From: Alphaproteobacteria bacterium
Lineage (GTDB): Bacteria > Pseudomonadota > Alphaproteobacteria > MPNO01
Length of the DNA stretch: 64,000 nt
NCBI GenBank assembly: GCA_965248835.1
Contig: CBDFLJ010000002.1
Location: 352,001 to 416,000 of the forward strand
Direction of reading: 5' to 3'
In this document: positions 32,261 through 54,278 of the stretch, piece after piece
Layout: every line of letters starts with the position of its first letter
How positions within the stretch are numbered: the first letter of the stretch is position 1
Position numbers and translations under genes: made by a program
Notes under the pieces: model-generated
Told to the model about the DNA's origin: nothing
Database searches by the model: none
What the model saw: the letters and a program-made list of their open reading frames with translations, nothing else

Positions 32261-32269
32261 GACCCGCTC

Positions 32270-33472
32270 ATGCAGATGGCGGCGGCGGGGGATGTGATCC
32301 CCTCGGACGAGGAGCTGATCGCCCGCGCCCGCGACCTGGTGCCGGCGATCGCCGCGCGGGCCGACGAGACCGAGCGGATACGCCGGATCCACCCCGACAC
32401 CATTGCCGACATCGAAAAGGCCGGCCTGTGGCGCGTGCTCCAGCCGGTGCGCTATGGCGGTTACGAAGGCCACTACGAGGTGTTCATCGACATCGGCGAA
32501 GAGTTCGGCCGAGCCTGCACCTCGACCGCCTGGGTGTGGGTCAACCTGGTCTCGCACAACTGGATGCTGGGCATGTGGCCGGTTGATGGCCAGGAGGCGG
32601 TGTGGGGACCCGACCCCGGCGCGCGCATCGGCTCGGCGACGATCTACCCGCCGGGCAAGGTCGTCCCGGTCGAGGGAGGCTACCGGCTGAGCGGGCGCTG
32701 GCCGTTCTCCAGCGGCATCGATGCCTCGGACTGGGTGATGCTGGGCGGCATGGTCCCGCCCGAGGACCAGGACGCGAAGCCGGTGCCGAGGGTCTTCGTC
32801 CTGCCGGTGGATGTGATCGAGGTGATCGACAATTGGGACGTGATGGGCCTGCTGGGCACCGGCTCCAAGGACGTGGCCTGCACCGATGTCTTCGTGCCGG
32901 CCTGCATGACGCTGAGCCCGCACGAGATGCGCGGCGAGGTGACGCCCGGCATGGCCGTCAATCCGAACCCGCTCTACCGCCTACCTCTGCTGGCCCTTTT
33001 CCCGCATATTATCGGCGGCGCGCTGCTCGGCGGCGCCCGCGGGGCCTATGACAGCTATGTCGAGGAGATGCGCAGCCGTGTCGCGACCTTCAACGCCGGT
33101 CGGATCGCCGATCACGCGGCGGTCCAGCTCAGGATCGCCGAGGCCGGCTCGATGATCCGCGCGGCCCGCCAACTGCTGCGCGACGGCCCGCGCGAAGGTC
33201 ATCGCATCGCCGCAGCCGGACGCGCTCCGAGCGAGCAGGAAAAGACCCGCTGGCGCGCCGACGCCGCCTATGCCTGCCGGCTGTGCCGCGATGCGGTCGA
33301 TGTGCTGCACGATGCCTCGGGCGGCGGCGGCAACTACCGCGCCAACAAGCTGCAACGCTTTTTCCGCGATGTTCATGCCGGCTGCGGCCACATCGGCGTG
33401 TCCTGGGACGCCAACGGCGCCGAGCACGGCCGTTCCGTGCTGGGCCTGCCGGTCGGCAATTTCCTGCTATGA
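32270..33472 (+). CDS. Group D flavin monooxygenase, oxygenase subunit (HsaA-like)
   Basis: LQPVRYGG, SGRWPFSSG, NW...GL.GTGS and QRFFRDVH. Confidence 0.88.
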   Translation: MQMAAAGDVIPSDEELIARARDLVPAIAARADETERIRRIHPDTIADIEKAGLWRVLQPVRYGGYEGHYEVFIDIGEEFGRACTSTAWVWVNLVSHNWMLGMWPVDGQEAVWGPDPGARIGSATIYPPGKVVPVEGGYRLSGRWPFSSGIDASDWVMLGGMVPPEDQDAKPVPRVFVLPVDVIEVIDNWDVMGLLGTGSKDVACTDVFVPACMTLSPHEMRGEVTPGMAVNPNPLYRLPLLALFPHIIGGALLGGARGAYDSYVEEMRSRVATFNAGRIADHAAVQLRIAEAGSMIRAARQLLRDGPREGHRIAAAGRAPSEQEKTRWRADAAYACRLCRDAVDVLHDASGGGGNYRANKLQRFFRDVHAGCGHIGVSWDANGAEHGRSVLGLPVGNFLL

Positions 33473-35772
33473 TCGGCCGATCGATCCCGCGCAGCGAGGA
33501 TTTCAGGCTGGTCACCGGCCACGGCCGGTTCAGCGACGATGTCGACCGTCCGGGCCAGGCGTTCGCCTGCATGGTCCGCTGCCCCCATGCCCACGCCGAA
33601 ATCGGCGACATCGCGATCGATGCGGCGCTCGCCGTGCCGGGCGTCATTGCCGTGCTGACCGGCCGGGATGCCGCAGACGACGGGCTGGCCATGATCCCGC
33701 ACATCACCATCCCGTCGAGCCCGCCCGACATCGCGATCGCCAATACCGACGGCTCGCCGGTCTTCGAGCCGCCGCACGAGGTGATCCCGCTGGCCCGCGT
33801 CCGCCATGTCGGCGAGGCCGTGGCCGTCGTCCTGGCCGAGTCCGAAGCGGCCGCCAGGGACGGGGGCGAGCGGGTCGCGGTCGACTACCGGCCGATCGAT
33901 CCGGTCATCGCGACCCGGCAGACCCTCGAGTCCGGACCGCTGGTCTGGCCCGATCACGGCTCCAACGTCTGCATCGACGGCACGGTGGGCGATGCCGAAG
34001 CAGTCGCGCGCGCCTTCGAGACGGCCCATGAGGTGGTCACTCTGGAGACCACCGTGTCGCGCTGCACCGGAGTGCCGATGGAGCCGCGTGCCGCGGTCGC
34101 TTCCTACGATGAACGGACCGGGCGCTACGATCTTCACGCCGGCTCCGGCGGGGTGGTCCGCCACAAGGAGGACCTGGCTGCGATCCTCGGGGTCGCCGCC
34201 GAGGATCTGCGGGTGACGGCGAACGATGTCGGCGGCAATTACGGCACCCGAAATGCGCTCTATCCCGAGTTCGCGATCGTGCTCTGGGCGGCGCGGCGGA
34301 TCGGCCGGCCGGTCAAGTGGACCGGCGATCGGACCGAGATGTTCCTCTCCGACTTCCAGGCCCGCGACCTGGTCGTCCGCGCCGAGCTCGCGCTGGCCGC
34401 CGACGGCCGGTTCGAGGCCTTGCGGATCTCCAATATCAGCAATATCGGCGCGCACGGGGTCTCGTTCATCCCGCTGGTCAAGGGCGTGGAGATCTTCCCG
34501 CTGACCTACCGGATCGGCGCTTGCCACGCGCGGGCGCGGGCGGTGACGTCGAACACCCCGCCGACCTATCCCTACCGCAGCGCCGGCCGGCCCGAAGTGA
34601 CCTACGCCATGGAGCGGCTGATCGACATCGCCGCCGACCGGCTCGGGCTCGACCGGCTGGCGATCCGGCGGCGCAACATCGTCCCGACCGAGGCAATTCC
34701 ATATGCCAACGGGCTCGGCCTGGTCTACGACAGCGGCGATTTCCCTGTTGCGATGGAGGCCGCCGTCGCGCTCGGCGACTGGCACGGCGCGGCCGCGCGC
34801 AAGTCCGCCGCCGCCGCCCGCTCCCGGCTGCACGGCATTGGCATCGCCAACTACCTCGACCTCGCCACCGGCTCGCCCTACGAACGGACCGAGATGACGG
34901 TCTCGCCCGACCACCGCATCGACGTGGTGATCGGCACCCAGGATTCGGGCCAGGGCCATGAGACCGCGTTCGGCCAGGTGGTGGCTGCGCTCCTGGGCGT
35001 GCCGTTCGAGACGGTGCGGTTGATCACCGGCGATACCGACGTGGTCGCCGTCGGCGGCGGCTCGCATTCCGGGCGGTCGATGCGGCTGGGCGCGATGATC
35101 CTGAGCCAGGCCGCCGAGGAGATCATCGCCACGGGAAGCGGCATCGCCGCCGAGATGCTGGAGGCCGCCGCCGCGGACATCGATTACGCCGACGGCCGCT
35201 TCACCGTGGTCGGCACCGACCGGTCGGTCGGGCTGTTCGAGGTCGCGGGCGCCGCGCCCGACCCGCTGTCCGCGGCCGCCCAGGTCGAGCACCGCCAGGC
35301 CGCCTTCGGCAGCGGCTGCCATGTCTGCGAGGTCGAGATCGATCCGGAGACCGGCGAGACCGAGATCCTGCGCTATGCCGCGGTCGATGACGTCGGCCGG
35401 GCGATCAACCCGATGCTGATCGACGGCCAAACCCACGGCGGCATCGTCCAAGGCCTGGGACAGGCGCTGATGGAGCGCTGCGTCTACGATCCGGAATCCG
35501 GCCAGCTCCTGAGTGCGAGCTTCATGGACTACGCGATGCCCCGGGCCGACCGGACGCCCAGCTTTGCCACCCGCCTGATCGAGGTGCCGAGCCCGCAGAA
35601 CCCGCTGGGCGTCAAACCGGGCAGCGAGGGCGGCACGGCGGTCTCCCCGGCCGTGATCGCCAATGCGATCGTCGATGCCCTGGCACCGCTCGGCGTGCGC
35701 CATATCGAGCTGCCGGCGAGCCCGGAATGCATCTGGCGAGCGATCCGCGAGGCCGCGCAAGGCGACGCCTGA
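33469..35772 (+). CDS. Xanthine-oxidase-family molybdopterin large subunit (form II CoxL-like; loop PYRSAGR)
   Basis: PMEPR, GGNYG, YRSAGRPE, GQGHET and INPMLIDGQTHGG; ATGA overlap with the upstream gene. Confidence 0.9.
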   Translation: MIGRSIPRSEDFRLVTGHGRFSDDVDRPGQAFACMVRCPHAHAEIGDIAIDAALAVPGVIAVLTGRDAADDGLAMIPHITIPSSPPDIAIANTDGSPVFEPPHEVIPLARVRHVGEAVAVVLAESEAAARDGGERVAVDYRPIDPVIATRQTLESGPLVWPDHGSNVCIDGTVGDAEAVARAFETAHEVVTLETTVSRCTGVPMEPRAAVASYDERTGRYDLHAGSGGVVRHKEDLAAILGVAAEDLRVTANDVGGNYGTRNALYPEFAIVLWAARRIGRPVKWTGDRTEMFLSDFQARDLVVRAELALAADGRFEALRISNISNIGAHGVSFIPLVKGVEIFPLTYRIGACHARARAVTSNTPPTYPYRSAGRPEVTYAMERLIDIAADRLGLDRLAIRRRNIVPTEAIPYANGLGLVYDSGDFPVAMEAAVALGDWHGAAARKSAAAARSRLHGIGIANYLDLATGSPYERTEMTVSPDHRIDVVIGTQDSGQGHETAFGQVVAALLGVPFETVRLITGDTDVVAVGGGSHSGRSMRLGAMILSQAAEEIIATGSGIAAEMLEAAAADIDYADGRFTVVGTDRSVGLFEVAGAAPDPLSAAAQVEHRQAAFGSGCHVCEVEIDPETGETEILRYAAVDDVGRAINPMLIDGQTHGGIVQGLGQALMERCVYDPESGQLLSASFMDYAMPRADRTPSFATRLIEVPSPQNPLGVKPGSEGGTAVSPAVIANAIVDALAPLGVRHIELPASPECIWRAIREAAQGDA

Positions 35773-37701: not shown

Positions 37702-38466
37702 TCAGGCCATCGTCTCGCCGCCGTCGAGCGAGATCACTTGGCCGGTGATGTAGCTCGCCTCGGGACCCAGCAGGAAGACGATCATCGGCGCGATCTCGTC
37801 CGCCCGGCCGAGCCGGCCGATCGGGACGACTTCGGCGCGCTTGGCGGCCACAGCCTCGAACTCGGCCGCCGGCACCAGGCCGCGCCACAATGGCGTGTCG
37901 ATCGGGCCGGGTGCGACGGCGTTGCAACGGATGCCGAGCGGGCCCTTCTCGCGGGCGAGCGACTTGGTGAAGCCGATGATGGCGCCCTTGGCGGCGGAAT
38001 AGTGGGCGGCCTGCGCCTGGCCGCGCAGGGCATGGAGCGAGGACATGTTGACGATCGCCCCCGCCTTGGCCGCGATCATGTCGGGCAGCGCCGCGCGGCA
38101 GACGTTGAAGGTCCCGGTGACGTGGACGGCAAACATCGCCGCCCAGTCCGCATCGGTGATGTCCTGGACTTCGACCACCTGGTAGAAGCCGGCGATGTTG
38201 ACCACGGCATCGATGGTCCCCAGCGCGGCCTGCGCCGCAGCGACGGCGTCATTGACGGCCGTCGGGTCGGCGACGTCGAGCGTGATCGGAAACGCCTTGC
38301 CGCCGGCCGACTCGATCGCGGATGCAGTCTGGCGCGCGCCGTCTTCGTTGCGGTCGGCGATCGCCACCGCCGCGCCGGCGGCGGCCAGCAGTCTGGCCGT
38401 CTCCCGGCCCATGCCGCTGCCGCCGCCGGTGACGAACCCGACCCGTCCGTCCATGGTTCCCGGCAT
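37702..38466 (-). CDS. SDR oxidoreductase
   Basis: TGGGSGMG, YSAAK, NAVAPG and YITGQ. Confidence 0.9.
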   Translation of the reverse strand: MPGTMDGRVGFVTGGGSGMGRETARLLAAAGAAVAIADRNEDGARQTASAIESAGGKAFPITLDVADPTAVNDAVAAAQAALGTIDAVVNIAGFYQVVEVQDITDADWAAMFAVHVTGTFNVCRAALPDMIAAKAGAIVNMSSLHALRGQAQAAHYSAAKGAIIGFTKSLAREKGPLGIRCNAVAPGPIDTPLWRGLVPAAEFEAVAAKRAEVVPIGRLGRADEIAPMIVFLLGPEASYITGQVISLDGGETMA

Positions 38467-38475
38467 GATCGACCT

Positions 38476-39633
38476 CTACTCGGCGGCGGCGGCAAGCCGG
38501 CGCTTCTTCTGCCTGACCTTGATGCCGTAAAACTTCTCGGCGTTGCGGTAGAGGATCTTCTCCTTCTGCACTTCGGTGATGTCGGTGCGCTCGCCCAAAT
38601 CCTCGCCCGAGCCCTCGCGCTCCTCCAAATGCGGCATGTCCTCGGAGACCATGATCTTGTCATCGCCGAGATAGCCGAGAACCTGGGGCAGCAGCAGCTC
38701 GTCGGCCTCGGCGGTGACGTAGATGCGGTCCTTGTAGGTCTCGGGCGACTTGCTGGTGATCTTGCCGAGCCCGAAGGAGGAGCGGAAGAATTCCGCCACC
38801 GGGTAGTAGTGGTTCATGCGCGCCAGGTACCACGGCAGCCAGCCGCACCCGCCCTCGAGAAAGATCGCCCGCAGCCTGGGATGGCGGTCGAGGATGCCGC
38901 CGCCGGCAAAGCTGTAGAATCCCATCAGGAGCGGCAGGGTGAAGGAGACGTTGAGCGAGCTGGAATGCTCATCGCACATCCGGCGCATCGAGCCCAACGG
39001 CCAGCCGACATGGACCGCGACTGGCAAATCCACCTCCTGGGCGGCCGCCCAGACGGGGTCGAACTCCGGCATATGGAGCAGTCTCTCGCCGACGGTGCCG
39101 AAGCACATCAGCGAGACCGCGCCGGCGTCCTTGACGCGGTGGATCTCCCTGACCGCCGCCTTGGGCTCGCACAGGGGGAGCACCGCAGCCCACTTCAGCC
39201 GGTTCGGCGCTTCGGCGCAGCGCTCGGCGATCCATTTGTTGTAGCTCACCGTCAGCGCGGTCTGGAAGGCATCGTCATCGGTCAGCGGCGCGAAAAGCAG
39301 CGTCGAATAGACCACCTGGATGTCGATCCCCGCGCGGTCGAGGTCAGCGAGCCGGGCCGGTACATCCATCAGCGACTGGTTGCCGATGGAGAACTCCTTC
39401 AAGCCGGCATGGACCGACGACAGCGGACAGCCGATCTGGATCGTGCCCGGGCCCCAGGTCCACTGGATGGCCTTTCCATCGACGAACCAGAACGCGTTGT
39501 CGACGCCCATATAGGGCGCGTCCTGCTGCGGAATGGTGATCGGGATCGGCCGGCGGTCGCGGTATTTTTTGGGCAGATAGTCCCAGGTCTGCTCGACCTC
39601 GAAGACATGGGAATCCGCATCGATATAGGGCAT
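38476..39633 (-). CDS. Amidohydrolase_2 family (decarboxylase/hydratase-type)
   Basis: IDADSH, GIDIQV, VAVH, LEGG.GW and SEDMPH. Confidence 0.85.
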   Translation of the reverse strand: MPYIDADSHVFEVEQTWDYLPKKYRDRRPIPITIPQQDAPYMGVDNAFWFVDGKAIQWTWGPGTIQIGCPLSSVHAGLKEFSIGNQSLMDVPARLADLDRAGIDIQVVYSTLLFAPLTDDDAFQTALTVSYNKWIAERCAEAPNRLKWAAVLPLCEPKAAVREIHRVKDAGAVSLMCFGTVGERLLHMPEFDPVWAAAQEVDLPVAVHVGWPLGSMRRMCDEHSSSLNVSFTLPLLMGFYSFAGGGILDRHPRLRAIFLEGGCGWLPWYLARMNHYYPVAEFFRSSFGLGKITSKSPETYKDRIYVTAEADELLLPQVLGYLGDDKIMVSEDMPHLEEREGSGEDLGERTDITEVQKEKILYRNAEKFYGIKVRQKKRRLAAAAE

Positions 39634-39912: not shown

Positions 39913-40821
39913 TCACCGGCCTATCGGCGCATCGGGGCGGCTGCGCGATTCGCGCCGTGCAACGTAGGTGGTCGCCGCAACGATCATCGCGCCGCCGATC
40001 CAGACCTCCAGCCCGGGACGCTCGGCGAACAGCAGGAAGCCGAGCAGCGAGGCCCACACCAGCCGGAACAGGATCATCGGCTCGACCAGACCGACATCGG
40101 CCAGCCGGTAGGCCTGGATCACGCAGATATGTCCGCAGCTCCCCAGCGCGCCGATCAGCACCAGCACCGCGAGCTGCCCGAGGCTCGGCGTCTGCCAGAC
40201 CAAGGCCGCCGGGATCGCCGTGACCGGGATCATCAGAAGCGTCAGATAGGCAACGATCGTGGTTGTGGAATCGGTCCGGGTGAGGCCCTTGGCGATGAGC
40301 TTGGAGCCGGTCACGAAGCCGGCCGAACCCACCACCAGCATTGCGCCCAGCGTGATCTCGACGAAGCCCGGCCGCAGGATGACCAGCATGCCGGCCAACC
40401 CGACCGCCAGACCCACCACCCGGTGGAACCGGATCCGCTCACCGAGGATCAGGATCGCCCCGAAGATCGCGAACAGGGGGCTGGTCAGGGACAACGCCGT
40501 CGCATCAGCCAGCGGGATCAGGCTGAGCCCGGTGAACCAGCACAGCATCGAGCCGCCGTTGAGCAGCCCGCGCACCGCGTGAAGCCCGAACCGGTCGGTC
40601 TTGAAGGCCACGATCCCGATCCGCATGAGCCAGGGCAGGAGCACGCAGAAACCGAAGACGTTGCGGAAAAAGGCGATCACGAACGGGTGCAATTCGCCCG
40701 ACATGTAGCGGACCGTGCCGTGCATGCTTGCAAGGAAGGCGCTTGCCAGGATCATGAAGACGACGCCGGCGATTGCCGGCGAGCCCGCTCCGATCGCGTC
40801 GAGCCGGGCGGGGCCGTTCAA
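39913..40821 (-). CDS. DMT/EamA family transporter
   Basis: About 10 TM segments; AFFRN, LADATAL and LGER motifs. Confidence 0.9.
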   Translation of the reverse strand: MNGPARLDAIGAGSPAIAGVVFMILASAFLASMHGTVRYMSGELHPFVIAFFRNVFGFCVLLPWLMRIGIVAFKTDRFGLHAVRGLLNGGSMLCWFTGLSLIPLADATALSLTSPLFAIFGAILILGERIRFHRVVGLAVGLAGMLVILRPGFVEITLGAMLVVGSAGFVTGSKLIAKGLTRTDSTTTIVAYLTLLMIPVTAIPAALVWQTPSLGQLAVLVLIGALGSCGHICVIQAYRLADVGLVEPMILFRLVWASLLGFLLFAERPGLEVWIGGAMIVAATTYVARRESRSRPDAPIGR

Positions 40822-41237
40822 TCGACGAACCGCCGCTTCGCGGACTCGGGAAAGGCGATCGCGCGGATTCCCCTAGACGAGCCCGGATCGTCGGTCATCA
40901 GCACCCGCCGCTCGAAGCCTTCCACCGCCGGCTCGCCCCCGGCAAGGTTGATCCGGTGGCGGAGCAGGAAAGCGCGCGTGCTCCATTCGTCGACCCAGCT
41001 CTCCTGATCGATTTCATCGCCCAGCCGGCAGGGAAAGCGGAAGGTCGTGCCGGTCTCGATCAGCGGCATCCCGGTCACCCCGAAGTCGCGCGCGAGCTCC
41101 GGATAGCTCAGCCCGTTGGCGCTGAACAGCTTCTCGGTGGCTTGATCGAACCAGATCTGGAAGTTGGGGTAGAAAACGATGCCGGCGGAATCGCAGTGCG
41201 ACCAGGCGACGACAAAGCGGCTGCGGTAGGTCCTCAT
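40818..41237 (-). CDS. fcbC: 4-hydroxybenzoyl-CoA thioesterase (4HBT class I, FcbC-like)
   Basis: CDSAGIVFYPNF (catalytic Asp), WFD, EW, and the C-terminal RAI..P as in the Pseudomonas CBS3 enzyme. Confidence 0.75.
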   Translation of the reverse strand: MRTYRSRFVVAWSHCDSAGIVFYPNFQIWFDQATEKLFSANGLSYPELARDFGVTGMPLIETGTTFRFPCRLGDEIDQESWVDEWSTRAFLLRHRINLAGGEPAVEGFERRVLMTDDPGSSRGIRAIAFPESAKRRFVD

Positions 41238-41240
41238 CGC

Positions 41241-41702
41241 CTAGCCCGGTTGGTTGAGCCGGACCAGCAGGCCCATCAGCGTGTCGAGCTCGTCCGCGCT
41301 CAAATGGCCCGCGACCCGGTCCTCGTGCGTGCGCACCGCGACCCGCAGAGTCGCGAGCACCGCCTCGCCCCGGTCGGTCAGCACGATCGCGTTGGACCGG
41401 CGGTCGCCTTGCTGGGCCTTGCGGGCGAGGAGGCCCGCGTCCTCCAGCTTGTCGATCATGCGCACGATCACCGAGCGGTTGCTGCCGAAGACGTTGGCCA
41501 ACGCGGTCTGGGTCGATCCCGGGTTGGCGCCAACCACGATCAGGAGCCCGAACTGGCCGTGGGTCAGGCCGTGGCGCGCCAAGCGCGCCGAAAAGCCGGC
41601 ATAGACCAGCGTCTGGCCTCGGCGTAGCTGATAGCCGAGGAGTCCGGGCAGGATATCGAGGTCCAGGGGCCTTTCCCGGCCGAGGTGGGCATCGTCTGGC
41701 AT
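41241..41702 (-). CDS. MarR family transcriptional regulator
   Basis: GLTHGQF, TQTALA, IDKLE..GL and DRRS...LT..G. Confidence 0.93.
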   Translation of the reverse strand: MPDDAHLGRERPLDLDILPGLLGYQLRRGQTLVYAGFSARLARHGLTHGQFGLLIVVGANPGSTQTALANVFGSNRSVIVRMIDKLEDAGLLARKAQQGDRRSNAIVLTDRGEAVLATLRVAVRTHEDRVAGHLSADELDTLMGLLVRLNQPG

Positions 41703-41739
41703 GGCATTGCTATTGGTCGTTGCGGAAGGTTGCAGCTTA

Positions 41740-41785
41740 TGGCATTGTTTAATTGTTGACTAGGTAAATGATTGATTACATCACG
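41740..41785. promoter_or_regulatory. AT-rich divergent promoter with a putative MarR operator
   Basis: AT-rich patch in GC-rich DNA; imperfect palindrome TTGACTAGGTAA centred on CTAG (41756-41767) that overlaps a TTGACT -35-like hexamer. Confidence 0.5.
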
Positions 41786-41822
41786 CTCTGCGGTCCAGAT
41801 GTGGCACGCCGGGAGGGGAGCC

Positions 41823-42308
41823 ATGAGAACCGTCCTGTCTCTGAGCCTCAACGGGAAGGGCCGCGACGATGTCGTCGCGGACAACATGCTGCTGGTCGAC
41901 TACCTGCGCGAGGTCGCCGGCGCAACGGGCACCAAGATCGGCTGTGACGGCGGCGAGTGCGGCGCCTGCACGGTGCTGATCGACGACCGGCCGCGCCATT
42001 CGTGCCTGACCCTTGCCGGTGCCTGCCAGGGCGCCCGCGTCGAGACGATCGAATCCCTCGAGCGAAGCGGTCGGCTGTCGGCGATCCAACGCGGCTTTCA
42101 CGAAAAGCTCGGTGCCCAGTGCGGGTTCTGCACCCCCGGCATGATCATGGCCGCCGAAGGCCTGTTGCGGGCGAACCCCGACCCGGACGAGGCGGCGATT
42201 CGTTCCGGCATGGCGGCCAACATCTGCCGGTGCACCGGCTACATCAAGATCATCGAGGCGATACGCGCGGCCGCGGTCGAAATCGCGGCCGGGGAGGCGG
42301 CGGCATGA
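41823..42308 (+). CDS. hcrC: 4-hydroxybenzoyl-CoA reductase gamma (2x[2Fe-2S]) subunit
   Basis: [20 protein letters not shown] and CRCTGY. Confidence 0.9.
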
Positions 42309-44641
42309 GCCAGGCGATCGGCCCCATCCAGACGATCGGCGTGCCGACGCCGCTGATCGACGGCCCGGAAAAGGTCTCCGGCAAGGCGCTTTATACCGCC
42401 GATTTCATCAACCAGGCCGAACTGGTCGGGCGGATCCTGCGCAGCCCGGTGGCGCATGCAAGGATCCTCAGCGTCGATACCAGCGCGGCCGAGGCGCTGC
42501 CCGGCGTCCACGCGGTGGTCACCGGTGCGGACTGCGCGGACACCTATGGCGTGCTTCCGATCGCGATGAACGAGTACGCGATCGCCAAGGACCGGGTGCG
42601 CTACCGCGGCGAGGCGGTGGCGGCGGTCGCGGCCGAGGATATTGTTACCGCCCAGCGTGCGCTCGATCTGATCGAAATCGTCTATGACGAGCTGCCGGCC
42701 TATTTCACCGCCGAGGCGGCGCGCGCGGCGGATGCGATCCAACTCCACGACGAGCGGCCGGGCAATATCGAGCGCGAGGTTGACTTCGAGCTCGGCGATG
42801 TCGCGGCCGGGTTTGCCGCCGCCGATCTGGTGCGCGAGCGGACCTATCAGCTTGGCGAGGTCTGCCAGGTCCAGTCCGAGCCGCACGCCGCTCAGGCCGA
42901 ATACGACGCCACGCGCGAGCGCATCACCGTCCGCGCGTCCACCCAAGTGCCCTATTACGTCCACCTGATGCTCGCCCGCACGCTGGGCATGGAGCAGTCC
43001 GACATAAGGGTGATCAAGCCCCATGTCGGCGGCGGGTTCGGATGCCGGACCGAGGCGCTGCATGTCGAGCTGGTCGCCGCCCTGCTCGCGCGCAAGGCGC
43101 GCGGCACCGTCCGCCTGGTCCTGAGCCGCGAGGAGACTTTCATCACCCATCGCGGCCGCCAGGAGACTGCGGTCAAGCTCAAGCTCGGGATGAAGAAGGA
43201 CGGCACGATTACCGCGGTCGAGTGCGAATCGGTCCACCGCGCCGGCGGCTATTCGGGCTACGGGATCGTCACCATCCTCTACAACGGCTCGATGCTGTTT
43301 GCGATCTACGACCTGGAGAACGTCAAGTACAAGGGATTCCGGGTCTTGACCAACATGCCGCCGCCCGGCGCCTTCCGGGGCCACGGCACGGTCAACATCC
43401 GGTTCGCCTTCGAGAGCCTGCTCGACGACATGGCCGAGACGCTGGGGCTTGACCCGTTCACGGTCAGACGGGCGAACCTGCTGAGCGCGCCGACGTTTAC
43501 GGCCAACGAACTGATGGTCAATTCCTACGGCCTGCCCGAGTGTCTGGATATCGTCGAAAAGGTATCGGGCTGGAAGGAGCGGCGCGGCAAGCTCGGTCCC
43601 AACCGCGGCCTCGGCATGGCGTGCTCGCACTACATCTCCGGTGCGTCCAAGCCCAAGCACTGGACCGGTGAGCCGCACGCGACGATCCAGCTCAAGCTCG
43701 ACTGGGATTCCTCGATCACACTGTTGACCGGCGCGGCCGAGATCGGCCAGGGCTCGTCCACCGTCCTTGCCCAGTGCGTGGCCGAGGTGCTGGGGATCGA
43801 TATCAGCCGGATCAACGTCGTCGCCTCCGACAGCGCGCTCACCCCGAAGGACAACGGCTCCTATTCCTCGCGGGTCACCTATATGGTCGGCAACGCCGCG
43901 ATCAATGCGGCCGAGAACCTGAAGGCCGTGCTGACCGACGCGGCAGCGAAAAAACTCGACGTCCGTCCCGAGGACGTCGAATGCCTGGGCGATGTCTACC
44001 GTGCCGGTTCTCAGGACGAGGGCCTGACCTGGAAGGAGGTCGTGATGGCGGCCCTGGAAGGCACCGGCACGATCACCGTCAAGGGCACCTTCGATACCAT
44101 TCCCGAGTCCTGGGGCGGGCGGAAATACCGCGGTGCCGCGATCGGCGGGACGATGGCCTTCGCCTACTCCGCGCTGGTCTGCGAAGTCGCGGTCGATCCG
44201 GAAACCTGCGAGATCTCGGTCGAGAAGGTCTGGGTTGCCCATGACTGCGGCAAGGCGCTCAACCCGCTCTCGGTCGAGGGCCAGATCGAAGGCTCGGTCT
44301 GGATGGGCATGGGCCAGGCGCTGTCCGAAGAGACCCGCTACCACGACGGGCTCGGGATCACCGGCAACATGCTCGACTACCGCGTGCCGACGATCGTCGA
44401 ATCGCCGCCGATCGAGACCCACATCGTCGAAAGCGCCGACCCGCACGGCCCGTTCGGCGCCAAGGAGGCCGGCGAGACCTCGCTTGCCAACTTCCTGCCG
44501 GCGCTGACCAGTGCGGTCGCCGATGCGCTGGGCGTGCGCGCCAGCGAGCTGCCGCTGACCCCGGACCGGTTGATGGAGCTGCTGGAGAAGAGGGAAACGG
44601 ACACGCGGGTCGCGGCGCGCCGGATCGGGGAGGCCGGGTGA
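42305..44641 (+). CDS. hcrA: 4-hydroxybenzoyl-CoA reductase alpha (Mo-MCD) subunit
   Basis: [29 protein letters not shown] and GAKEAGE typical of HcrA/HbaC. Confidence 0.9.
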
Positions 44642-45618
44642 TGGAGTACATGCCGGCCTTCAAGTTGGAGCGGCCCGATACGGTCGCAGACGCGGTCCGG
44701 CTGCGCGCAGCCGATGAGACCGGGCGCTATCTCGCCGGCGGGACCGACATGGTGGTCAACGTCCGGCGCGGGATCGAGGCGCCGACGACATTGGTCGACC
44801 TGACCAACGTTGCCGAGCTCAAGGAGATCCGCGCGGACGCGGACGGGCTGCATATCGGCGCCGCCGTCCCGCTGAGCGCGGTTGCCGCCCATCCCGATGT
44901 CGCGCGCGACTACGCCGCCGTTGCCGAGGCCGCCGCCGCGGTGGCCGGCCCCACCCATCAGAACTACGGCACCGTCGGCGGGAACCTGTGCCTGGACACC
45001 CGCTGCCTCTACTACAACCAGAGCGAGTGGTGGCGCCGGTCCAACGATTATTGCCTCAAGCACCGGGGCGAGGTGTGCCATGTCGCGCCCGGCGGCAAGC
45101 GTTGCTTCGCGACGTTCTCCGGCGACCTCGCGCCGGCCGCACTGGTCCACGGGGCCGAGGTGACGCTTGCCGGCCCCGACGGCGACCGGCTTGTGCCGCT
45201 GCAGGAGATCTACAGGAACGACGGGATGGATCACCTCGCGCTGGGGCGCTACGAGCTGCTGACCACGCTGCATCTGCCCAAGGCCGGGGCGGGCCTGCCT
45301 TCGGGCTACCGCAAGGCACGGGTCAGGGGCTCGATCGATTTCCCGCTGGCCGGTGCCGCCGTCGGACTCAGGATGGACAACGGCGCGCCGGCCGAACTCA
45401 GGATCGCGGTGACCGCGGTCAACCCCATTCCCCATATGATCAAGGGCACCGACGCCTTCCTCGGCAAGCCGCTCGACGGGGCCGCGCTCGATGCGCTGCG
45501 CGATGCGGTGCGCAGCCAGGCCAAGCCGATGCGGACCACCACGGTCGCGCCGTGGTATCGTCGCCGCGTGGTGGGTGCGCTGGCCCGGCAGCTCGTGGAG
45601 CGTCTCCAGGCCGCCTGA
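44641..45618 (+). CDS. hcrB: 4-hydroxybenzoyl-CoA reductase beta (FAD, [4Fe-4S]) subunit
   Basis: AGGTD, plus the HBCR-specific 4-Cys insertion CLDTRCLYYNQSEWWRRSNDYCLKHRGEVCHVAPGGKRC. Confidence 0.93.
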   Translation: MEYMPAFKLERPDTVADAVRLRAADETGRYLAGGTDMVVNVRRGIEAPTTLVDLTNVAELKEIRADADGLHIGAAVPLSAVAAHPDVARDYAAVAEAAAAVAGPTHQNYGTVGGNLCLDTRCLYYNQSEWWRRSNDYCLKHRGEVCHVAPGGKRCFATFSGDLAPAALVHGAEVTLAGPDGDRLVPLQEIYRNDGMDHLALGRYELLTTLHLPKAGAGLPSGYRKARVRGSIDFPLAGAAVGLRMDNGAPAELRIAVTAVNPIPHMIKGTDAFLGKPLDGAALDALRDAVRSQAKPMRTTTVAPWYRRRVVGALARQLVERLQAA

Positions 45619-45654
45619 GCCCGCCCTGCTGCAAACCCGGGGAGGGCAGAAGAG

Positions 45655-46491
45655 ATGGCCAGGGCAAATGTGCGCGGGATCGGCATCAACTACCAGGTCC
45701 TGGGCGAGGACGGCCCCTGGGTCGCGCTGTCGCCCGGCGGGCGGCGCGGCATGGAGGCCGTGGATTCGCTGGCCGGGCGGATCGCCGGGGCCGGCTACCG
45801 CGTGGTGATCCACGACCGGCGCAATTGCGGCGCCTCGGACGTCGTCATCGGCGGCGCGGAATCGGAATACGAAAGCTGGGCCGACGACCTCCACGCGCTG
45901 CTCCATCAGCTCGGCGCCCTGCCGGCGTTCATCGGCGGCGCGTCCTCGGGCTGCCGTACCTCGATCCTGTTCTACCTCCGCCACCGCGAGGCGACCCGTG
46001 CGCTGATGCTGTGGCGGGTGACCGGCGGCAAGTTCGCCGCCGAGCGCCTGGCATGGAACTATTACGGTCTGTTCATCGAGGCGGCGAAGAACGGCGGCAT
46101 GGAAGCGGTCTGCCGGACCGAGCATTTCAGCGACCGTTTCGCCCAGTGGCCGGCCAACCGGGGCCGGCTGATGGCGATGGACCCGGCCGACTTCATCGAC
46201 CGGATGGAGCACTGGCGGCGCTTTTTCCTGGCTGGCGCGGACCTGCCGGTGATCGGCGCCTCCGAGGAGGATCTGCGCTCGATCGCGGTGCCGACGATCA
46301 TCGTGCCGGGCTGCGACCGCATCCACGGCATCGAAACCGGCCGCAACGCGCACCTCCTGATCCCCGGCGCCGAGCTCTACGAGATGTTCACCGAGCAGGT
46401 TGACGTCGACCTCTACCCGCTCGAGGAATGGGACGCGCGCGAGGGGGAGCTCGCCGGCGCCTTCATCGATTTCCTCGAGCGCGCCGCGTAA
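45655..46491 (+). CDS. Alpha/beta-fold hydrolase
   Basis: HDRRNCGAS, the G-A-S-S-G nucleophile elbow, and PTIIVPG.D. Confidence 0.82.
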   Translation: MARANVRGIGINYQVLGEDGPWVALSPGGRRGMEAVDSLAGRIAGAGYRVVIHDRRNCGASDVVIGGAESEYESWADDLHALLHQLGALPAFIGGASSGCRTSILFYLRHREATRALMLWRVTGGKFAAERLAWNYYGLFIEAAKNGGMEAVCRTEHFSDRFAQWPANRGRLMAMDPADFIDRMEHWRRFFLAGADLPVIGASEEDLRSIAVPTIIVPGCDRIHGIETGRNAHLLIPGAELYEMFTEQVDVDLYPLEEWDAREGELAGAFIDFLERAA

Positions 46492-46501
46492 AGGATCAGC
46501 G

Positions 46502-47320
46502 ATGCCGACGCGAGACTACGAGACCCTGCTTCTCGACATCGTCGACGGGGTCGGGCGGATCACCTTCAACCTGCCGCAATTCGGCAACGCGCTCACCCGG
46601 ATCGGCGTCGAGGAATTGCTCGCCGCGCTGAATGCCTGCGAGTCCGATGAAACCGTCGGCGCGGTCATGCTGACCGGCGCCGGCCGGAGCTTCTGCGCCG
46701 GCTTCAACCTCAAGGAGATCCCGCCGGTCGATGACGGGATCGCGCCGATCGCCGACCACTTCCGCGATCTGGCGATGTGGTGGCATCTGGTGCTGCACAA
46801 GATCGTCCATATCCCCAAGCCGGTGATGTCGGCGGTCAACGGGGCTGCCGCCGGCTCCGGGCTCGGCATGGCGCTGTGCTCGGATCTCGTGGTGTGCTCG
46901 CAGGACGCGCGGTTCCTGTGCGCCTGGCACACCATCGGGCTGGCCAACGATGCGACCACCAGCTATTCGCTTGCCAAGATCGTCGGCTTCCGCCGCGCCC
47001 AGGAGATGATGATCACCAACCGCACGCTGGGAGCGGCCGAGGCGGTCGAATGGGGCATCGCCAACCGCGTCTACCCGGCCGCGACCTTCGCCGAGACCGC
47101 CGCCGCCATCGCCCGCGACCTCGCCGCCGCGCCCACCCACCTCCAGGCGATGGCCAAGGAAAGCTTTCACCTCGGCTGGCGGCGGTCGATCGAGGAGGCG
47201 ACGGAATACGAGATCAAGAATGTCATGACCTCGGTCCGCGACCCCTATTTCCACGCCGCGCTCAAGCGCTTCCTCGAAGACGGCGGCAAGTCCTCCAAGG
47301 TCCAGGTCGAATTGCCCTGA
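46502..47320 (+). CDS. fcbB: 4-chlorobenzoyl-CoA dehalogenase homolog
   Basis: FCAGF..EIP, DHFR..WWH, CAWHTIGLAND, SYSLA.IVG, AAAPTHLQ.MAK and VELP match the CBS3 dehalogenase along its whole length; His90, Trp137 and Asp145 equivalents present. Confidence 0.9.
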   Translation: MPTRDYETLLLDIVDGVGRITFNLPQFGNALTRIGVEELLAALNACESDETVGAVMLTGAGRSFCAGFNLKEIPPVDDGIAPIADHFRDLAMWWHLVLHKIVHIPKPVMSAVNGAAAGSGLGMALCSDLVVCSQDARFLCAWHTIGLANDATTSYSLAKIVGFRRAQEMMITNRTLGAAEAVEWGIANRVYPAATFAETAAAIARDLAAAPTHLQAMAKESFHLGWRRSIEEATEYEIKNVMTSVRDPYFHAALKRFLEDGGKSSKVQVELP

Positions 47321-47365
47321 AGCGATCGGACATGCACCGACCACGCCGATCGTGAAGACAAACGC

Positions 47366-47381
47366 CGCCCGCCGGCGGGCG
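47366..47381. terminator. Perfect GC palindrome between convergent genes
   Basis: cgcccgccggcgggcg. Confidence 0.4.
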
Positions 47382-47409: not shown

Positions 47410-48402
47410 TCAGCTCTTGGACTGCTCCAGGGTTTCCGGGGTAAACAGGTCTTCGATGGCGAGCGGGCGCTTGGACAGGCCCTGCTCGTATGAGTACCGC
47501 GCCATGGTCTCGATCGATTTCCGGTTCTTCTCGATGCCGTAGGGCCAGTAGTCCTCGCCCATCAGGGCAATGGTCTCCTCGACCTCGGCGGCGAGCCAGG
47601 GCACCGTGGCCTTGACCGCGCCGAAATTGCGCAGACCCGGCATGGCCACCGCCTTGGCCTTCTCGAAGGCCTCGAAAACGTTGTTGGCGAGCCAGCGGTG
47701 CTCATCGACCAGCGAGCGGCGCAGGGCGGCGACATGCATGATCGGGTGCACCCCGGTCCTCTTGTAATAATCCTTCTCCAGCGCGCGGTAGTCGGGGAAC
47801 AAGCGGCCGATGTCGGGGTGGCCCTTGAGGAAGGCCGACGGCGGCAGGGGCGAGACCATGGCGTCGAGCTCGCCGTCCGCCATCATCCCCGACAGGCTCT
47901 TGTCCGCAGGGATCGGCCGGCAGACGATGTCGGACGGCAAATCCAGGCTCAGCTTCTCCGGCCGGCCGGGGTCCTCGATCCCGCCGGTGAGCCAGGTGAC
48001 GTCCGAGGCCTTGACGCCGTATTCGTCCGACAGCATGCCGCGGGCGGCCAGGGCCGCGGTGACCTGGTACTCCGGCACGCCGACGGCGCGGCCCTTGAGG
48101 TCCTGCGGGTCTTTGATCCCCCGGTCGGTGCGGATGTAGATCGCCGAATAGCGCCACATGCGCGACAGAAACACGGGGATCGCGACGTAGGGTGCCTCGC
48201 CCCGGTCGAGCATCATCATATAGGAGCTGAACGACAGCTCGGTCAGATCGAACTCCTGGTTGCGGATCGCGCGGAAGAAGATGTCGTGGATGTCGAGTGC
48301 GAAATGGGTGGCATCGCAGCCCTCGATCCTCACCCTGCCGTCGGCCAGCGCCTGCACCCGGTCGTAGTCCCAAAACGTCATCGTCAACGGCAGCAGCGCC
48401 AT
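47410..48402 (-). CDS. 4,5-dihydroxyphthalate decarboxylase-like (Pht5/OphC family, PBP fold)
   Basis: YDR..L.DGRV, IFFR, ELSFSSY, PVFLSR, GVPEYQ.TA, PIMH and DYWPYG. Confidence 0.8.
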   Translation of the reverse strand: MALLPLTMTFWDYDRVQALADGRVRIEGCDATHFALDIHDIFFRAIRNQEFDLTELSFSSYMMMLDRGEAPYVAIPVFLSRMWRYSAIYIRTDRGIKDPQDLKGRAVGVPEYQVTAALAARGMLSDEYGVKASDVTWLTGGIEDPGRPEKLSLDLPSDIVCRPIPADKSLSGMMADGELDAMVSPLPPSAFLKGHPDIGRLFPDYRALEKDYYKRTGVHPIMHVAALRRSLVDEHRWLANNVFEAFEKAKAVAMPGLRNFGAVKATVPWLAAEVEETIALMGEDYWPYGIEKNRKSIETMARYSYEQGLSKRPLAIEDLFTPETLEQSKS

Positions 48403-48517
48403 CGCATCCTCCCCCGGCTCACGGCTCAGCAAACCCAACCGTCCCATATGTCGTGGGCCGGGACAATTGCCAGCCGCGCCGAATTCGCGCAGCTTTGGCG
48501 ATCGATCGCGAGGCTTT

Positions 48518-51809: not shown

Positions 51810-52720
51810 GCGCGGCGGGTTCGGCCCGGCCGATCGTCATCGACTGCGATCCCGGCACCGACGATGCCGTCGCGCTCCTGCTCGCCTTCGCTGCTGCCGA
51901 TGCGCTCGACGTCAGGGCCGTGACCACGGTGGCGGGCAACGTGTCGGCCGCGCAGACGCTTGCCAACGCCTTGAAGATCCGCGAACTGGCCGGGCGCGAA
52001 GACGTGCCGGTCCACGGCGGCTGTGCCGCGCCCCTGATCGGGGTGGGGGGCACCGCGACCGAAATCCATGGCGATGACGGTCTGGGCGGGCTCGACCTGC
52101 CGGCGCCGGCCGGCACCGCCGCATCCGCCCACGCCGTCGATGCGCTGATCCGGGCGATCGAAGACCGGCCGGGGGCGATCACCATCCTCGCCGTCGGCCC
52201 GCTGACCAACCTCGCATTGGCGCTGGCCAAGCGCCGCGACCTGGTGCCTGAGATCCGCCGGATCGTCCTGATGGGCGGGGCGGTCGGCGCCGGCAACGTC
52301 ACACCCCATGCCGAATTCAACGTCCATGTCGATCCCCATGCCGCGCGGGTGGTCTTCGAGGCCGGCGCGCCGGTGGTGATGATCGGGCTGGATGTCACCC
52401 ACCAGGTGCGGTGCACGCCCGATCGCATCGCCGCGCTTGCGGCGCTGGGCACGCCGGCCGCGCGGGCCGCGGCGCGGCTGATGGCGCGCGATCCCGGCGA
52501 AGAACACGGTGCCGCGCTGCACGATCCGTGCACGATCGCCTACCTGCTGCGGCCCGACCTGTTCACCGGCGCACCGGCCCGCGTTGCGGTGGCGACCGCC
52601 GAGACCGCGGAGATCGGCCGCACCGTGGTCGATTTCGATGCGCCGCCCAACGCGCTGGTGCTGACCGGCGTGGATGCGGACGGGGTCTTCGCGTTGATCG
52701 AAGAGCGGCTCAGCCCTTGA
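51806..52720 (+). CDS. Nucleoside hydrolase
   Basis: DCDPGTDDA, HGDDGLG, GPLTNLA, AEFN and LHDP. Confidence 0.93.
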   Translation: MSAAGSARPIVIDCDPGTDDAVALLLAFAAADALDVRAVTTVAGNVSAAQTLANALKIRELAGREDVPVHGGCAAPLIGVGGTATEIHGDDGLGGLDLPAPAGTAASAHAVDALIRAIEDRPGAITILAVGPLTNLALALAKRRDLVPEIRRIVLMGGAVGAGNVTPHAEFNVHVDPHAARVVFEAGAPVVMIGLDVTHQVRCTPDRIAALAALGTPAARAAARLMARDPGEEHGAALHDPCTIAYLLRPDLFTGAPARVAVATAETAEIGRTVVDFDAPPNALVLTGVDADGVFALIEERLSP

Positions 52721-53936
52721 GCAGGGCCTGGAGCTTGACCTCGGGATCGGCGAGCGCGGCAGGGTCGAGCACCTTGCCGGCCTGCATCAGGCGCCTGGCA
52801 AAGCGGATGTCGCGGGGGTTGTTGATTGCGGCCGCCCCCTCGATCCGGCCGTCCTTGAGATAGAACTCGATGAACCGGTTCTCCGCCCGCTCGCCGCGGG
52901 TGACGGTCCGGTCCCAGTCGGCCGGCAGGCCGATGAGCTGGATGTTGACGTCGTACTGGTCCGACCAGAACCAGGGGATCTCCGCATACGGCGTCGCGCC
53001 GCCCAGCATCGCCCGGGCCGCGGCAATCGCCTGGTTCTGGGCATTCTCCCAGGATTCCAGCCTGATGCGCCGGCCCAGCAGGTCGTTGGGGTGGTTGGTC
53101 ACATCGCCGGCGGCATAGATGTTCGGATCGGACGTCCGGCCAAGCGCATCGACGATCACGCCGTTGTCGACCTCGAGCCCCGCTTCGGCCGCAAGCTCGA
53201 CATTGGGGATCAGCCCGATGCCGATCACCACGACGGAGGCCGGCAGCACCGTGCCGTCGGGCAGCCGCACGCCGCTCACCCGATCCTCGCCGAGGACCGC
53301 CTCGATCGACGTGCCCAGGCGCACATCGATCCCGCGCTCGCGGTGGATCGCGTACAGGTGGGCCGCGAAGTCGGGTGTCAGCGCCCGGCCGCAAAGCTGG
53401 TCCAGTGCCTCCAGGACGACCACATCGGCGCCCAGCATGCGCCCGGCTGCGGCGACCTCGAGCCCGATCCAGCCGCCGCCGACGACCACCAGCTTCGCGC
53501 CCTCGGTGATGTCGGCCCGGATCGCTGCGCTGTCGGGGATGTCGCGCAGATAGTGCACGCCGGGACGCTCGCTGCCGTCGATCGGCAGCTTGCGGACCCG
53601 CCCGCCGGTGGCCAGCATCAGCTTGTCGTATGCGATCGCCTCGCCGTCGGCGAGCCTCACGGTCCTGGCCGCGCGATCGATCGCGGTCACCGCCGTCGCG
53701 GTACGCAGCTCGACCCGCCATTCCTCGAAGGCGCCTTCGGGCCACAGATAGCTGGATTCGGCCGGCACCTTGCCCAGCAGCACCTCTTTGGACAGCGGCG
53801 GGCGTTCATAGGGCGGGTAGGGTTCCTCGCCGATCAGGACGATCCTGCCCTCGAAGCCCTCGTCTCGCAGGGTCTTGGCGGCCCAGCCGCCCGCCTGGCC
53901 GGCGCCGACCACGACGATCGCCCCGGCGGCGTTCAT
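52710..53936 (-). CDS. GR-type FAD ferredoxin reductase of a Rieske system
   Basis: GAGQAG, PYERPPLSK, GGGWIGLE, RLESW.NA and PWFWSDQY. Confidence 0.93.
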   Translation of the reverse strand: MNAAGAIVVVGAGQAGGWAAKTLRDEGFEGRIVLIGEEPYPPYERPPLSKEVLLGKVPAESSYLWPEGAFEEWRVELRTATAVTAIDRAARTVRLADGEAIAYDKLMLATGGRVRKLPIDGSERPGVHYLRDIPDSAAIRADITEGAKLVVVGGGWIGLEVAAAGRMLGADVVVLEALDQLCGRALTPDFAAHLYAIHRERGIDVRLGTSIEAVLGEDRVSGVRLPDGTVLPASVVVIGIGLIPNVELAAEAGLEVDNGVIVDALGRTSDPNIYAAGDVTNHPNDLLGRRIRLESWENAQNQAIAAARAMLGGATPYAEIPWFWSDQYDVNIQLIGLPADWDRTVTRGERAENRFIEFYLKDGRIEGAAAINNPRDIRFARRLMQAGKVLDPAALADPEVKLQALLKG

Positions 53937-53957
53937 CGCACGTCCGGTCCGGCAGAA

Positions 53958-54278
53958 TCAGCCGGGCACGCCGACCATGATGTCGTCGCCGTCGACCTTG
54001 ATCTCGTAGGTCCTAAGGTTTTCGGTCACCGGCGGGGTCATCGCCTTGCCCGACTTGATGTTGAAGCAGCCGCCGTGCAGCGGGCATTCGATCACCTCGC
54101 CTTCGACATAGCCGTCCGCCAGAGAGGCATAGGCGTGGGTGCAGATGTCGTCGGTCGCGTAGAATTCGCCCTCGAGGTTGTAGATCGCGATTTCCTTCCT
54201 GCCGACCACGACCTGCAGAGCTTCGCCGTCGTCGAGGTCGCCCGTCTTGGCGACCGCGTGGAACTCGATATCACTCAT
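53958..54278 (-). CDS. Rieske-type ferredoxin
   Basis: CTH...CPLH Rieske motif; 106 aa. Confidence 0.93.
   Translation of the reverse strand: MSDIEFHAVAKTGDLDDGEALQVVVGRKEIAIYNLEGEFYATDDICTHAYASLADGYVEGEVIECPLHGGCFNIKSGKAMTPPVTENLRTYEIKVDGDDIMVGVPG

Follow-up and report, generated by a model that had tools for sequence, protein, structure and literature searches.

The gene cluster reported here occupies positions 39913-47320 of a 64,000-nucleotide window of alphaproteobacterial DNA (the whole stretch analysed, G000:C2:352001-416000) and places an ortholog of the 4-chlorobenzoyl-CoA dehalogenase gene fcbB behind hcrCAB, the predicted genes for the three subunits of 4-hydroxybenzoyl-CoA reductase. 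Judged from the predicted proteins, the cluster is best explained as a module for the removal of para-substituents, which would turn 4-halobenzoyl-CoA into benzoyl-CoA in two steps: the product of FcbB, 4-hydroxybenzoyl-CoA, is the substrate of the reductase encoded directly upstream. Every enzyme involved is of a known family, and what is new is their combination and the host context. The host is an uncultured alphaproteobacterium of the wastewater type. Its genome comprises 4.89 Mb in two contigs with 67% G+C, and was estimated from marker genes to be 100% complete with 9.5% contamination.

For this host we lean towards a route that runs from 4-halobenzoate via 4-halobenzoyl-CoA, 4-hydroxybenzoyl-CoA and benzoyl-CoA into the Box epoxide pathway. 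An FcbA-type ligase, encoded on the other contig (C1) and thus unlinked to the cluster, would probably make the CoA thioester. The Asp nucleophile of FcbB would attack C4, expelling the halide and releasing 4-hydroxybenzoyl-CoA, as suggested by a conserved set of Asp, His and Trp residues. HcrCAB, with its equivalog-level similarity to known reductases, would remove the hydroxyl group reductively by means of a low-potential electron donor, and BoxB and BoxC would consume the resulting benzoyl-CoA by the O2-dependent epoxide route. Box is placed at the exit because the genome is without a benzoyl-CoA reductase. With no PobA, the classical ending of the fcb pathway (thioesterase, 4-hydroxybenzoate, protocatechuate) is closed in the host's genus, and the best explanation is that, where PobA is absent, the CoA-bound route would replace this ending.

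Enzymes and organization of the cluster

Open reading frame (ORF), Pfam and NCBIfam checks confirmed all eight genes that an earlier reading of the sequence (the original prediction) had placed in this region:

39913-40821, minus strand: EamA/DMT membrane transporter, terminal gene of a divergent marR-thioesterase-DMT unit (Pfam EamA, 97 bits)
40818-41237, minus strand: FcbC-like thioesterase of the 4HBT hotdog fold (Pfam 4HBT_2, 37.6 bits)
41241-41702, minus strand: MarR-family regulator (Pfam MarR_2, 49.6 bits; MarR, 44.1 bits)
41823-42308, plus strand: hcrC, gamma subunit with two [2Fe-2S] clusters (TIGR03193, 241.1 bits; Pfam Fer2_2 and Fer2)
42305-44641, plus strand: hcrA, molybdopterin alpha subunit (TIGR03194, 1144 bits)
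44638 (GTG) or 44641 (ATG) to 45618, plus strand: hcrB, FAD beta subunit (TIGR03195, 421 bits)
45655-46491, plus strand: alpha/beta-fold hydrolase (weak Pfam Hydrolase_4 and Abhydrolase_1 matches)
46502-47320, plus strand: fcbB, 4-chlorobenzoyl-CoA dehalogenase ortholog of 272 amino acids (PDB 1NZY, 331 bits)
47363-47381, no strand assigned: GC-rich hairpin with terminator-like hits called on the minus strand only, between the convergent fcbB and an NMT1-like gene

Among solved structures, FcbB matched 1NZY with an E value of 5.6e-98, while the next crotonase reached 122 bits. Its fold is that of the crotonases (Pfam ECH_1, 167 bits), and no NCBIfam model scored over its cut-off, the best being a generic enoyl-CoA hydratase model (159 of 351 bits). 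The protein is identical to 1NZY at the positions aligned to Phe64, Trp89, His90, Trp137 and Asp145, and all five are also conserved without exception among 22 relatives (the last-named Asp, the His and the last Trp are D150, H95 and W142 in window numbering). In 1NZY, we take Asp145 to be the nucleophile and His90 the general base, with Trp137 as a further functional residue. By these comparisons, the window FcbB is closely related to the solved 4-chlorobenzoyl-CoA dehalogenase, with the catalytic residues kept. At E <= 1e-20 it has 489 relatives, of which the best 120 are 60-90% identical, and the clade is widespread among uncultured Alpha- and Betaproteobacteria from marine, soil and sludge habitats; a tblastn search of a plasmid collection with FcbB gave no match at E <= 1e-40. 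A second crotonase in the window (5278-6114) was considered as a second FcbB and rejected, the genome having a single match at E <= 1e-60.

Among the reductase subunits, HcrA scored above the NCBIfam equivalog cut-off of 994.55 bits and matched 1RM6_A with 995 bits (E 1.9e-298), the sole solved match at E <= 1e-100. HcrB also exceeded its equivalog cut-off (404.55 bits) and matched 1RM6_B with 286 bits over residues 4-324, and HcrC missed its cut-off of 257.8 bits by 16.7 bits, with TIGR03193 as its top model, 70 bits ahead of the next. In HcrB, the Pfam FAD_binding_5 match spans 209 residues for 168 profile positions, and the inserted Cys-rich stretch (NLC..TRC..YCLK..CH..RC) aligns to 1RM6_B without gaps and with every Cys matched, in line with the [4Fe-4S] insertion noted in the original prediction. 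The title of Unciuleac et al. (2004) names an extra [4Fe-4S] cluster in the reductase beta subunit. Paralogy among molybdenum hydroxylases is very large: the HcrA model gave 32 or more scored matches (E <= 1e-100) per genome in the host and its family, with 82 first-look candidates in the host; two more large subunits of this type lie in the window itself (29312-32923, minus strand; 33283-35772, plus strand).

The hydrolase encoded between hcrB and fcbB is most similar to cofactor-free haloperoxidases and arylesterases in a profile search of the PDB, with weak scores of 33-45 bits. All eight sequences compared share its G-x-S-x-G motif (GASSG) and the Asp of PGCD. The column of the catalytic His of 1A8Q (bromoperoxidase A1) holds His in six of eight orthologs, Val in the window and Leu in locus L014, and a further invariant His lies three residues past the Asp.

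The genes are packed as expected for an operon. As originally predicted, hcrC, hcrA, hcrB, the hydrolase gene and fcbB follow each other on the plus strand with gaps below 40 bp: the hcrC stop overlaps the hcrA start (ATGA), hcrA and hcrB overlap at GTGATG, and the two remaining gaps measure 36 and 10 nt. The likely start of hcrC is the ATG at 41823, preceded by a GGGAGGGGA motif, and that of fcbB is the ATG at 46502, the TTG at 46400 in the ORF list being further upstream. Terminator-like sites were looked for on the plus strand from hcrC to fcbB and none were found; hcrCAB and fcbB probably share one transcript, and the GC-rich hairpin 3' of fcbB is a possible transcript end. The marR, thioesterase and DMT genes all lie divergently on the minus strand, again in agreement with the original prediction, with 3 nt between the first two and a 4-nt overlap between the last two. 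A 120-nt, AT-richer spacer separates marR from hcrC; inverted repeats with a seed of >=6 were sought as a MarR operator in 41690-41830, and none were found. The top NCBIfam model of the regulator is the Saro_0803 family, with 81 bits, below the cut-off of 200.

Recurrence of the cluster and of an FcbA-type ligase

To place the cluster among its relatives, one genome per species was scanned with two peptide motifs of the window FcbB clade, a search that leaves classical fcbB genes outside its reach. It returned 55 species-level loci, all from uncultured bacteria, whose neighbourhoods were tested by tblastn with the window proteins. Directly upstream of a full fcbB, hcrCAB was found at 71-90% identity in nine of the 55 loci (L014-L022). 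At one more locus (L065), hcrCAB is present but fcbB is reduced to its last 85 codons, in two (L012, L013) the upstream sequence is too short to judge, and at the remaining 43 tblastn did not find hcr. An FcbA-type ligase accompanies fcbB in 27 of the 55 loci, none of them hcr-linked, and an AMP-binding enzyme is encoded directly 3' of fcbB in seven of nine loci inspected with Pfam. A maximum-likelihood tree of FcbB (53 rows, without three short matches) unites all hcr-linked FcbBs in one starred clade of 15 rows, which also includes two ligase-linked FcbBs of the host's taxonomic family.

That family was surveyed in 20 species genomes (G000-G019) of six genera (g1-g6). FcbB is present in 16 of them and HcrA over the cut-off in 17. 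In 11 of the 16 FcbB-positive genomes, from four genera (g1, g3, g5, g6), the FcbB and HcrA genes share a contig and strand and are 1.1-2.6 kb apart; of the other five, three are unlinked and two have assemblies too fragmented for a verdict. The neighbourhood search for fcbB near hcrAB that the original prediction had proposed thus showed the linkage to recur. Since it is found in nine of 55 loci and in 11 of 16 FcbB-positive family genomes, the hcr-fcbB arrangement is not due to chance. In one family genome (G016), the hcrA adjoining fcbB (C3:264057-265820; L014:5621-7411) covers model positions 1-589 only and scored 885 bits, under the cut-off, which may reflect a truncated or frameshifted gene or a fault in the assembly.

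The accompanying genes vary more among these loci. The hydrolase gene occurs in eight related loci and is missing from the hcr-linked L018 and L022. MarR is conserved in L014-L021 and L065, and a MarR gene also lies upstream of fcbB in the ligase-linked L041 and L058 and in L054. DMT homologs occupy the same place in seven related loci (L014, L017-L021, L065), with 70-86% identity.

A sister species (L065, one contig of 3.9 Mb) is collinear with the window from the DMT gene to hcrB, at 84-86% DNA identity, and has lost two segments. Through one deletion (L065:9996-10000), window positions 46006-47061 are missing, so that the hydrolase gene lacks its 3' part and fcbB its 5' two thirds; the other removed most of the thioesterase gene (L065:4988-5032, corresponding to window 40931-41239). 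Because these deletions hit fcbB, the hydrolase and the thioesterase while hcrCAB, marR and the DMT gene stay, they suggest that the three lost genes are an accessory set added to an hcr core. As the sister species retains the core, HcrCAB must serve a purpose of its own, the simplest candidate being the catabolism of 4-hydroxybenzoate.

The original prediction had also proposed to look for an aryl-CoA ligase elsewhere in the genome, and an FcbA ortholog was found on C1 (G000 C1:159844-161412), among housekeeping genes (CCA-adding enzyme, tRNA-binding protein). It shares 56-63% identity with the ligases encoded after fcbB at other loci, the next hit being at 32-36%, and among solved structures it matched 4-chlorobenzoate:CoA ligase (3CW8) with 410 bits, against 217 for the next. 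Of the residues that we take to form the 4-chlorobenzoate pocket of the ligase (F184, H207, F249, A280, I303, G305, M310, N311), H207, F249, I303, G305 and M310 are kept. An FcbA-like ligase is present in 18 of the 20 family genomes. Paralogy is large for this class as well, with 59 matches to the benzoate-CoA ligase model.

A third FcbB clade comprises 11 loci (L027, L034-L036, L040, L043, L046, L051, L054, L060, L066) in which neither the ligase gene nor hcr adjoins fcbB. In six of them (L027, L034, L036, L040, L051, L060) a distant molybdenum hydroxylase (27-30%) is encoded 5-8 kb upstream. In L054, the sole member scanned with Pfam, fcbB is preceded by MarR and followed by a 453-amino-acid protein without a Pfam match and a Mem_trans carrier.

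Predicted fate of 4-hydroxybenzoyl-CoA and benzoyl-CoA

At 4-hydroxybenzoyl-CoA, the proposed route would meet the divergently encoded thioesterase. The original prediction had labelled this protein fcbC-type, which stands insofar as its best solved match is the Pseudomonas 4-hydroxybenzoyl-CoA thioesterase 1BVQ and an Asp is kept at the position of Asp17, which is mutated in 1LO9; the similarity itself is weak, at only 50.9 bits (E 1.3e-12). We regard the protein as a candidate 4-hydroxybenzoyl-CoA thioesterase on the basis of these alignments. More speculatively, the marR-thioesterase-DMT unit may provide regulation and a relief valve when HcrCAB cannot run, in which the thioesterase would hydrolyse 4-hydroxybenzoyl-CoA and the DMT transporter would move the acid across the membrane.

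An alternative is that two pathways share the locus and its MarR but not their flux. FcbB and the thioesterase would then yield free 4-hydroxybenzoate, to be exported by the DMT transporter or oxidised by PobA, and HcrCAB would serve plant-derived 4-hydroxybenzoate via a separate ligase, with one MarR sensing the common intermediate. The FcbC-type best match and the kept catalytic Asp agree with this, as do the predicted co-transcription of the DMT and thioesterase genes, three TIGR02262-class aryl-CoA ligases elsewhere in the host genome, the retention of hcrCAB where fcbB is absent or deleted (G004, G009), and PobA in ten of the 20 family genomes, all of genus g6 (10 of 12). It is opposed by the position of fcbB, on the hcr strand and 10 nt past the hydrolase gene, with the thioesterase gene on the opposite strand and present in just four of nine hcr-linked loci (L014, L016, L017, L018). 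PobA, moreover, was not found in the host genome (best 32.6 bits against a cut-off of 538.7) and is present in none of the eight genomes of g1-g5; in genomes without PobA, free 4-hydroxybenzoate would need re-activation to the same CoA ester. We consider this alternative unlikely.

Returning to the CoA-bound route, the search for bcr/bzd/bad or box genes that the original prediction had proposed gave a divided result: BoxB and BoxC were found with a benzoate-CoA ligase, but no benzoyl-CoA reductase was. The benzoyl-CoA-consuming pathway present in the genome is thus the O2-dependent Box pathway, whose boxB, boxC and benzoate-CoA ligase genes are adjacent (G000 C2:149869-154575; L068:9861-14575) and all scored over their cut-offs (849, 926 and 600 bits, respectively). 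The refuting condition set by the original prediction, a genome without any pathway that consumes benzoyl-CoA, therefore does not apply. BoxB was detected in all 20 family genomes. Around boxBC lie EamA, UbiD, DUF427 and genes of unknown function, with no reductase-like gene alongside.

The label of an O2-independent module, given to the cluster by the original prediction, remains fair for the two enzymes, since both steps to benzoyl-CoA are chemically free of O2; it does not extend to the exit encoded in the genome, which depends on O2. The further claim of an anaerobic funnel is not supported. For it to hold strictly, a reductase outside the types searched for would have to dearomatise benzoyl-CoA without O2, and we think this very improbable, even though both cluster enzymes work without O2 and the genome encodes a POR-type oxidoreductase and an AOR-type tungsten or molybdenum enzyme. 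Class I benzoyl-CoA reductase gave no hits in the host genome with TIGR02260 or PF06050, and PF06050 gave none in any of the 20 family genomes, all of which have BoxB. The single AFOR protein of the host, tried as BamB, was rejected as such: it scored 63 bits to BamB (4Z3W, N-terminus) against 192 bits to AOR (1AOR), and resembles aldehyde:ferredoxin oxidoreductase. NarG was not found in the host genome, nor was CcoN; these were the respiration markers covered, and the organism may have other forms of anaerobic respiration.

A wider comparison points the same way. In an even sample of 301 alphaproteobacterial genomes, HcrA scored over the cut-off in 22, the host included. Adding one gene cut at a contig end to the other 21 gave a comparison set of 22 HcrA-bearing genomes, of which 18 have PF06050 and 20 have BoxB. 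None of the 18 reductase-bearing genomes has an FcbB ortholog (E <= 1e-60), and the four without the reductase have no FcbB at E <= 1e-40 beyond a 35%-identical crotonase. In the genomes sampled, the combination of FcbB with HcrCAB is therefore confined to the family that lacks benzoyl-CoA reductase.

Several observations weigh against the route that we favour. Those on the first two enzymes concern linkage and substrate. No ligase is encoded inside the hcr-fcbB cluster, and the FcbA-type ligase lies on the other contig of a genome flagged for 9.5% contamination, a worry countered by the one-contig sister genome G004, which carries both the ligase and hcrA. The ligase is kept, at 73-86% identity, in all four family genomes without FcbB (G004, G009, G013, G018), and is thus neither tied to FcbB nor confined to supplying it. 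Its pocket is changed at three of the positions listed above (F184W, A280G, N311C), and FcbB departs from 1NZY at Gly114 (Ser), Arg24 (Gly) and Arg67 (Lys). The oxyanion hole of 1NZY presumably consists of the backbone NH groups of Phe64 and Gly114, so that only the backbone would be involved.

The remaining points concern the other genes and the later steps. The intervening hydrolase has no assigned place in the route, and the adjoining thioesterase would compete with HcrCAB for 4-hydroxybenzoyl-CoA. Because hcrCAB is retained without fcbB in G004 and G009, the main task of HcrCAB is probably 4-hydroxybenzoate itself. The distribution of PobA leaves the classical route open in g6, where the hcr-fcbB linkage is commonest. 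BoxA was not found in the host genome (best TIGR03224 score 36.9 bits against a cut-off of 459). Finally, HcrCAB is known as an O2-sensitive, ferredoxin-dependent enzyme of anaerobes and BoxB needs O2, so that the two have opposite oxygen demands.

The differences in the ligase pocket and at Gly114, where the clade consensus is also Ser, would suit a variant of the same route with a natural substrate other than a chloro-compound, such as a natural product with a brominated or iodinated aromatic ring, or a compound with a nitro or fluoro group, which would still lead to 4-hydroxybenzoyl-CoA. The breadth of the clade (489 proteins, 55 species-level loci) likewise exceeds what pollutant exposure alone would predict. 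As the catalytic residues and overall score tie FcbB to an enzyme solved with 4-hydroxybenzoyl-CoA bound, we find such a substrate improbable.

The tension between an anaerobe-type HcrCAB and BoxB is, in our opinion, the most interesting point raised by the cluster. The one gene for a POR-type 2-oxoacid:ferredoxin oxidoreductase in the host genome is a possible source of reduced ferredoxin, and a shared ferredoxin might pass electrons to BoxB in place of BoxA, which was found in only two of the 20 family genomes. A broader reading is that the host's Defluviicoccus-related Rhodospirillales family, lacking the reductase, uses HcrCAB in general to strip para-substituents into Box, bypassing protocatechuate, with hydroxyl groups removed directly by HcrCAB and halogens via the appended FcbB. 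We offer this only tentatively and with more doubt than conviction. It requires either an O2-tolerant HcrCAB or an anoxic, ferredoxin-driven dehydroxylation followed by oxic ring opening, and such a separation in time would fit organisms in the anoxic/oxic cycles of activated sludge.

Relation to known systems and neighbouring genes

4-Chlorobenzoate is the usual dead-end product of the breakdown of 4-chlorobiphenyl, a polychlorinated biphenyl congener, and an organism living in wastewater may well meet it. The known bacterial route for its degradation leads via free 4-hydroxybenzoate and PobA to protocatechuate cleavage; the other route for para-halobenzoates is ATP-dependent reductive dehalogenation by benzoyl-CoA reductase. 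If confirmed, a natural operon that leads to benzoyl-CoA through CoA-bound intermediates would be a third way of handling these compounds. 4-Hydroxybenzoyl-CoA reductase is also used in metagenome surveys as a marker of anaerobic aromatic degradation. Were its family-wide occurrence in bacteria unable to reduce benzoyl-CoA to hold, its presence alone should not be read as anaerobic capacity. The enzymes are all small, soluble and close to solved structures, which makes the proposal directly testable.

All three enzyme types of the fcbABC operons (Pseudomonas sp. CBS3, Arthrobacter, Alcaligenes AL3007; 1NZY, 1T5D/3CW9, 1BVQ) are encoded in the host genome, and the chemistry presumably coincides in the first two steps. 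Unlike in fcbABC, the host genes do not form one operon, as the ligase gene is on another contig and the thioesterase gene is divergent and weakly similar (51 bits); the usual downstream enzyme, PobA, was not found in the host genome. In contrast to the ligase-paired relatives (27 of 55 loci), the host fcbB follows hcrCAB. With hcrCAB of Thauera aromatica (1RM6/1SB3) the cluster shares the gamma-alpha-beta gene order, the overlapping genes and the Cys-rich beta insertion. A further cluster of this kind is presumably hbaBCD of Rhodopseudomonas palustris, which we take to encode the 4-hydroxybenzoyl-CoA reductase of a facultative anaerobe. The present operon differs in also containing a hydrolase and a dehalogenase gene, and its host in having no benzoyl-CoA reductase, an enzyme present in 18 of the 22 other HcrA-positive alphaproteobacteria sampled. 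As in the Box pathway of Azoarcus evansii, BoxB and BoxC equivalogs are encoded beside a benzoate-CoA ligase; unlike in the usual pathway, BoxA was not found in the host or, the host included, in 18 of the 20 family genomes.

As the nearest known precedent, and on the same idea as the original prediction, hydrolytic 4-chlorobenzoate dehalogenase genes are said to have been combined before with an anaerobic aromatic degrader, in an engineered strain that reportedly worked via free 4-hydroxybenzoate in a host with benzoyl-CoA reductase. Compared with that strain, the combination described here is natural, at operon level and without benzoyl-CoA reductase. Such a constructed denitrifying strain metabolising 4-chlorobenzoate is named in the title of Coschigano, Haggblom and Young (1994, Appl Environ Microbiol 60:989). 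In the literature searched, which covered few subscription journals, the dehalogenase was not found joined with 4-hydroxybenzoyl-CoA reductase or benzoyl-CoA reductase, nor 4-hydroxybenzoyl-CoA reductase together with 4-chlorobenzoate. The same search gave no account of Box being fed from 4-hydroxy- or 4-halobenzoyl-CoA via HcrCAB, the reductase and boxB appearing together only in unrelated SAR324 work, and nothing on the host lineage, with Defluviicoccus and benzoyl-CoA mentioned together only in unrelated community surveys.

Genes on both sides of the cluster also have relatives near fcbB elsewhere. Convergent to fcbB lies an NMT1/THI5/SsuA-like gene (47410-48447, minus strand), which adjoins fcbB in L012, L015, L018 and L022 too (76-92% identity) and whose product has neither an obvious signal peptide nor a transporter partner; the NMT1/THI5/SsuA fold includes some aromatic-acid decarboxylases. 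At the other end, genes for an Amidohydro_2 protein and an SDR protein (37702-39633, minus strand) adjoin the DMT gene, and an Amidohydro_2 gene is found near the cluster in L014, L016, L017 and L018 as well (82-86% identity). Amidohydro_2 is the family of non-oxidative hydroxybenzoate decarboxylases. Further downstream, positions 52710-63890 of the window hold a block of aerobic aromatic-catabolism genes, including those for a Rieske ferredoxin and its reductase. The block contains a gentisate-pathway-like group, in which a bicupin is encoded with GST and FAA hydrolase (55779-58580), and a meta-cleavage lower pathway (59190-63890) with a DmpG-like aldolase, acetaldehyde dehydrogenase, a hydratase or decarboxylase, and aldehyde dehydrogenase.

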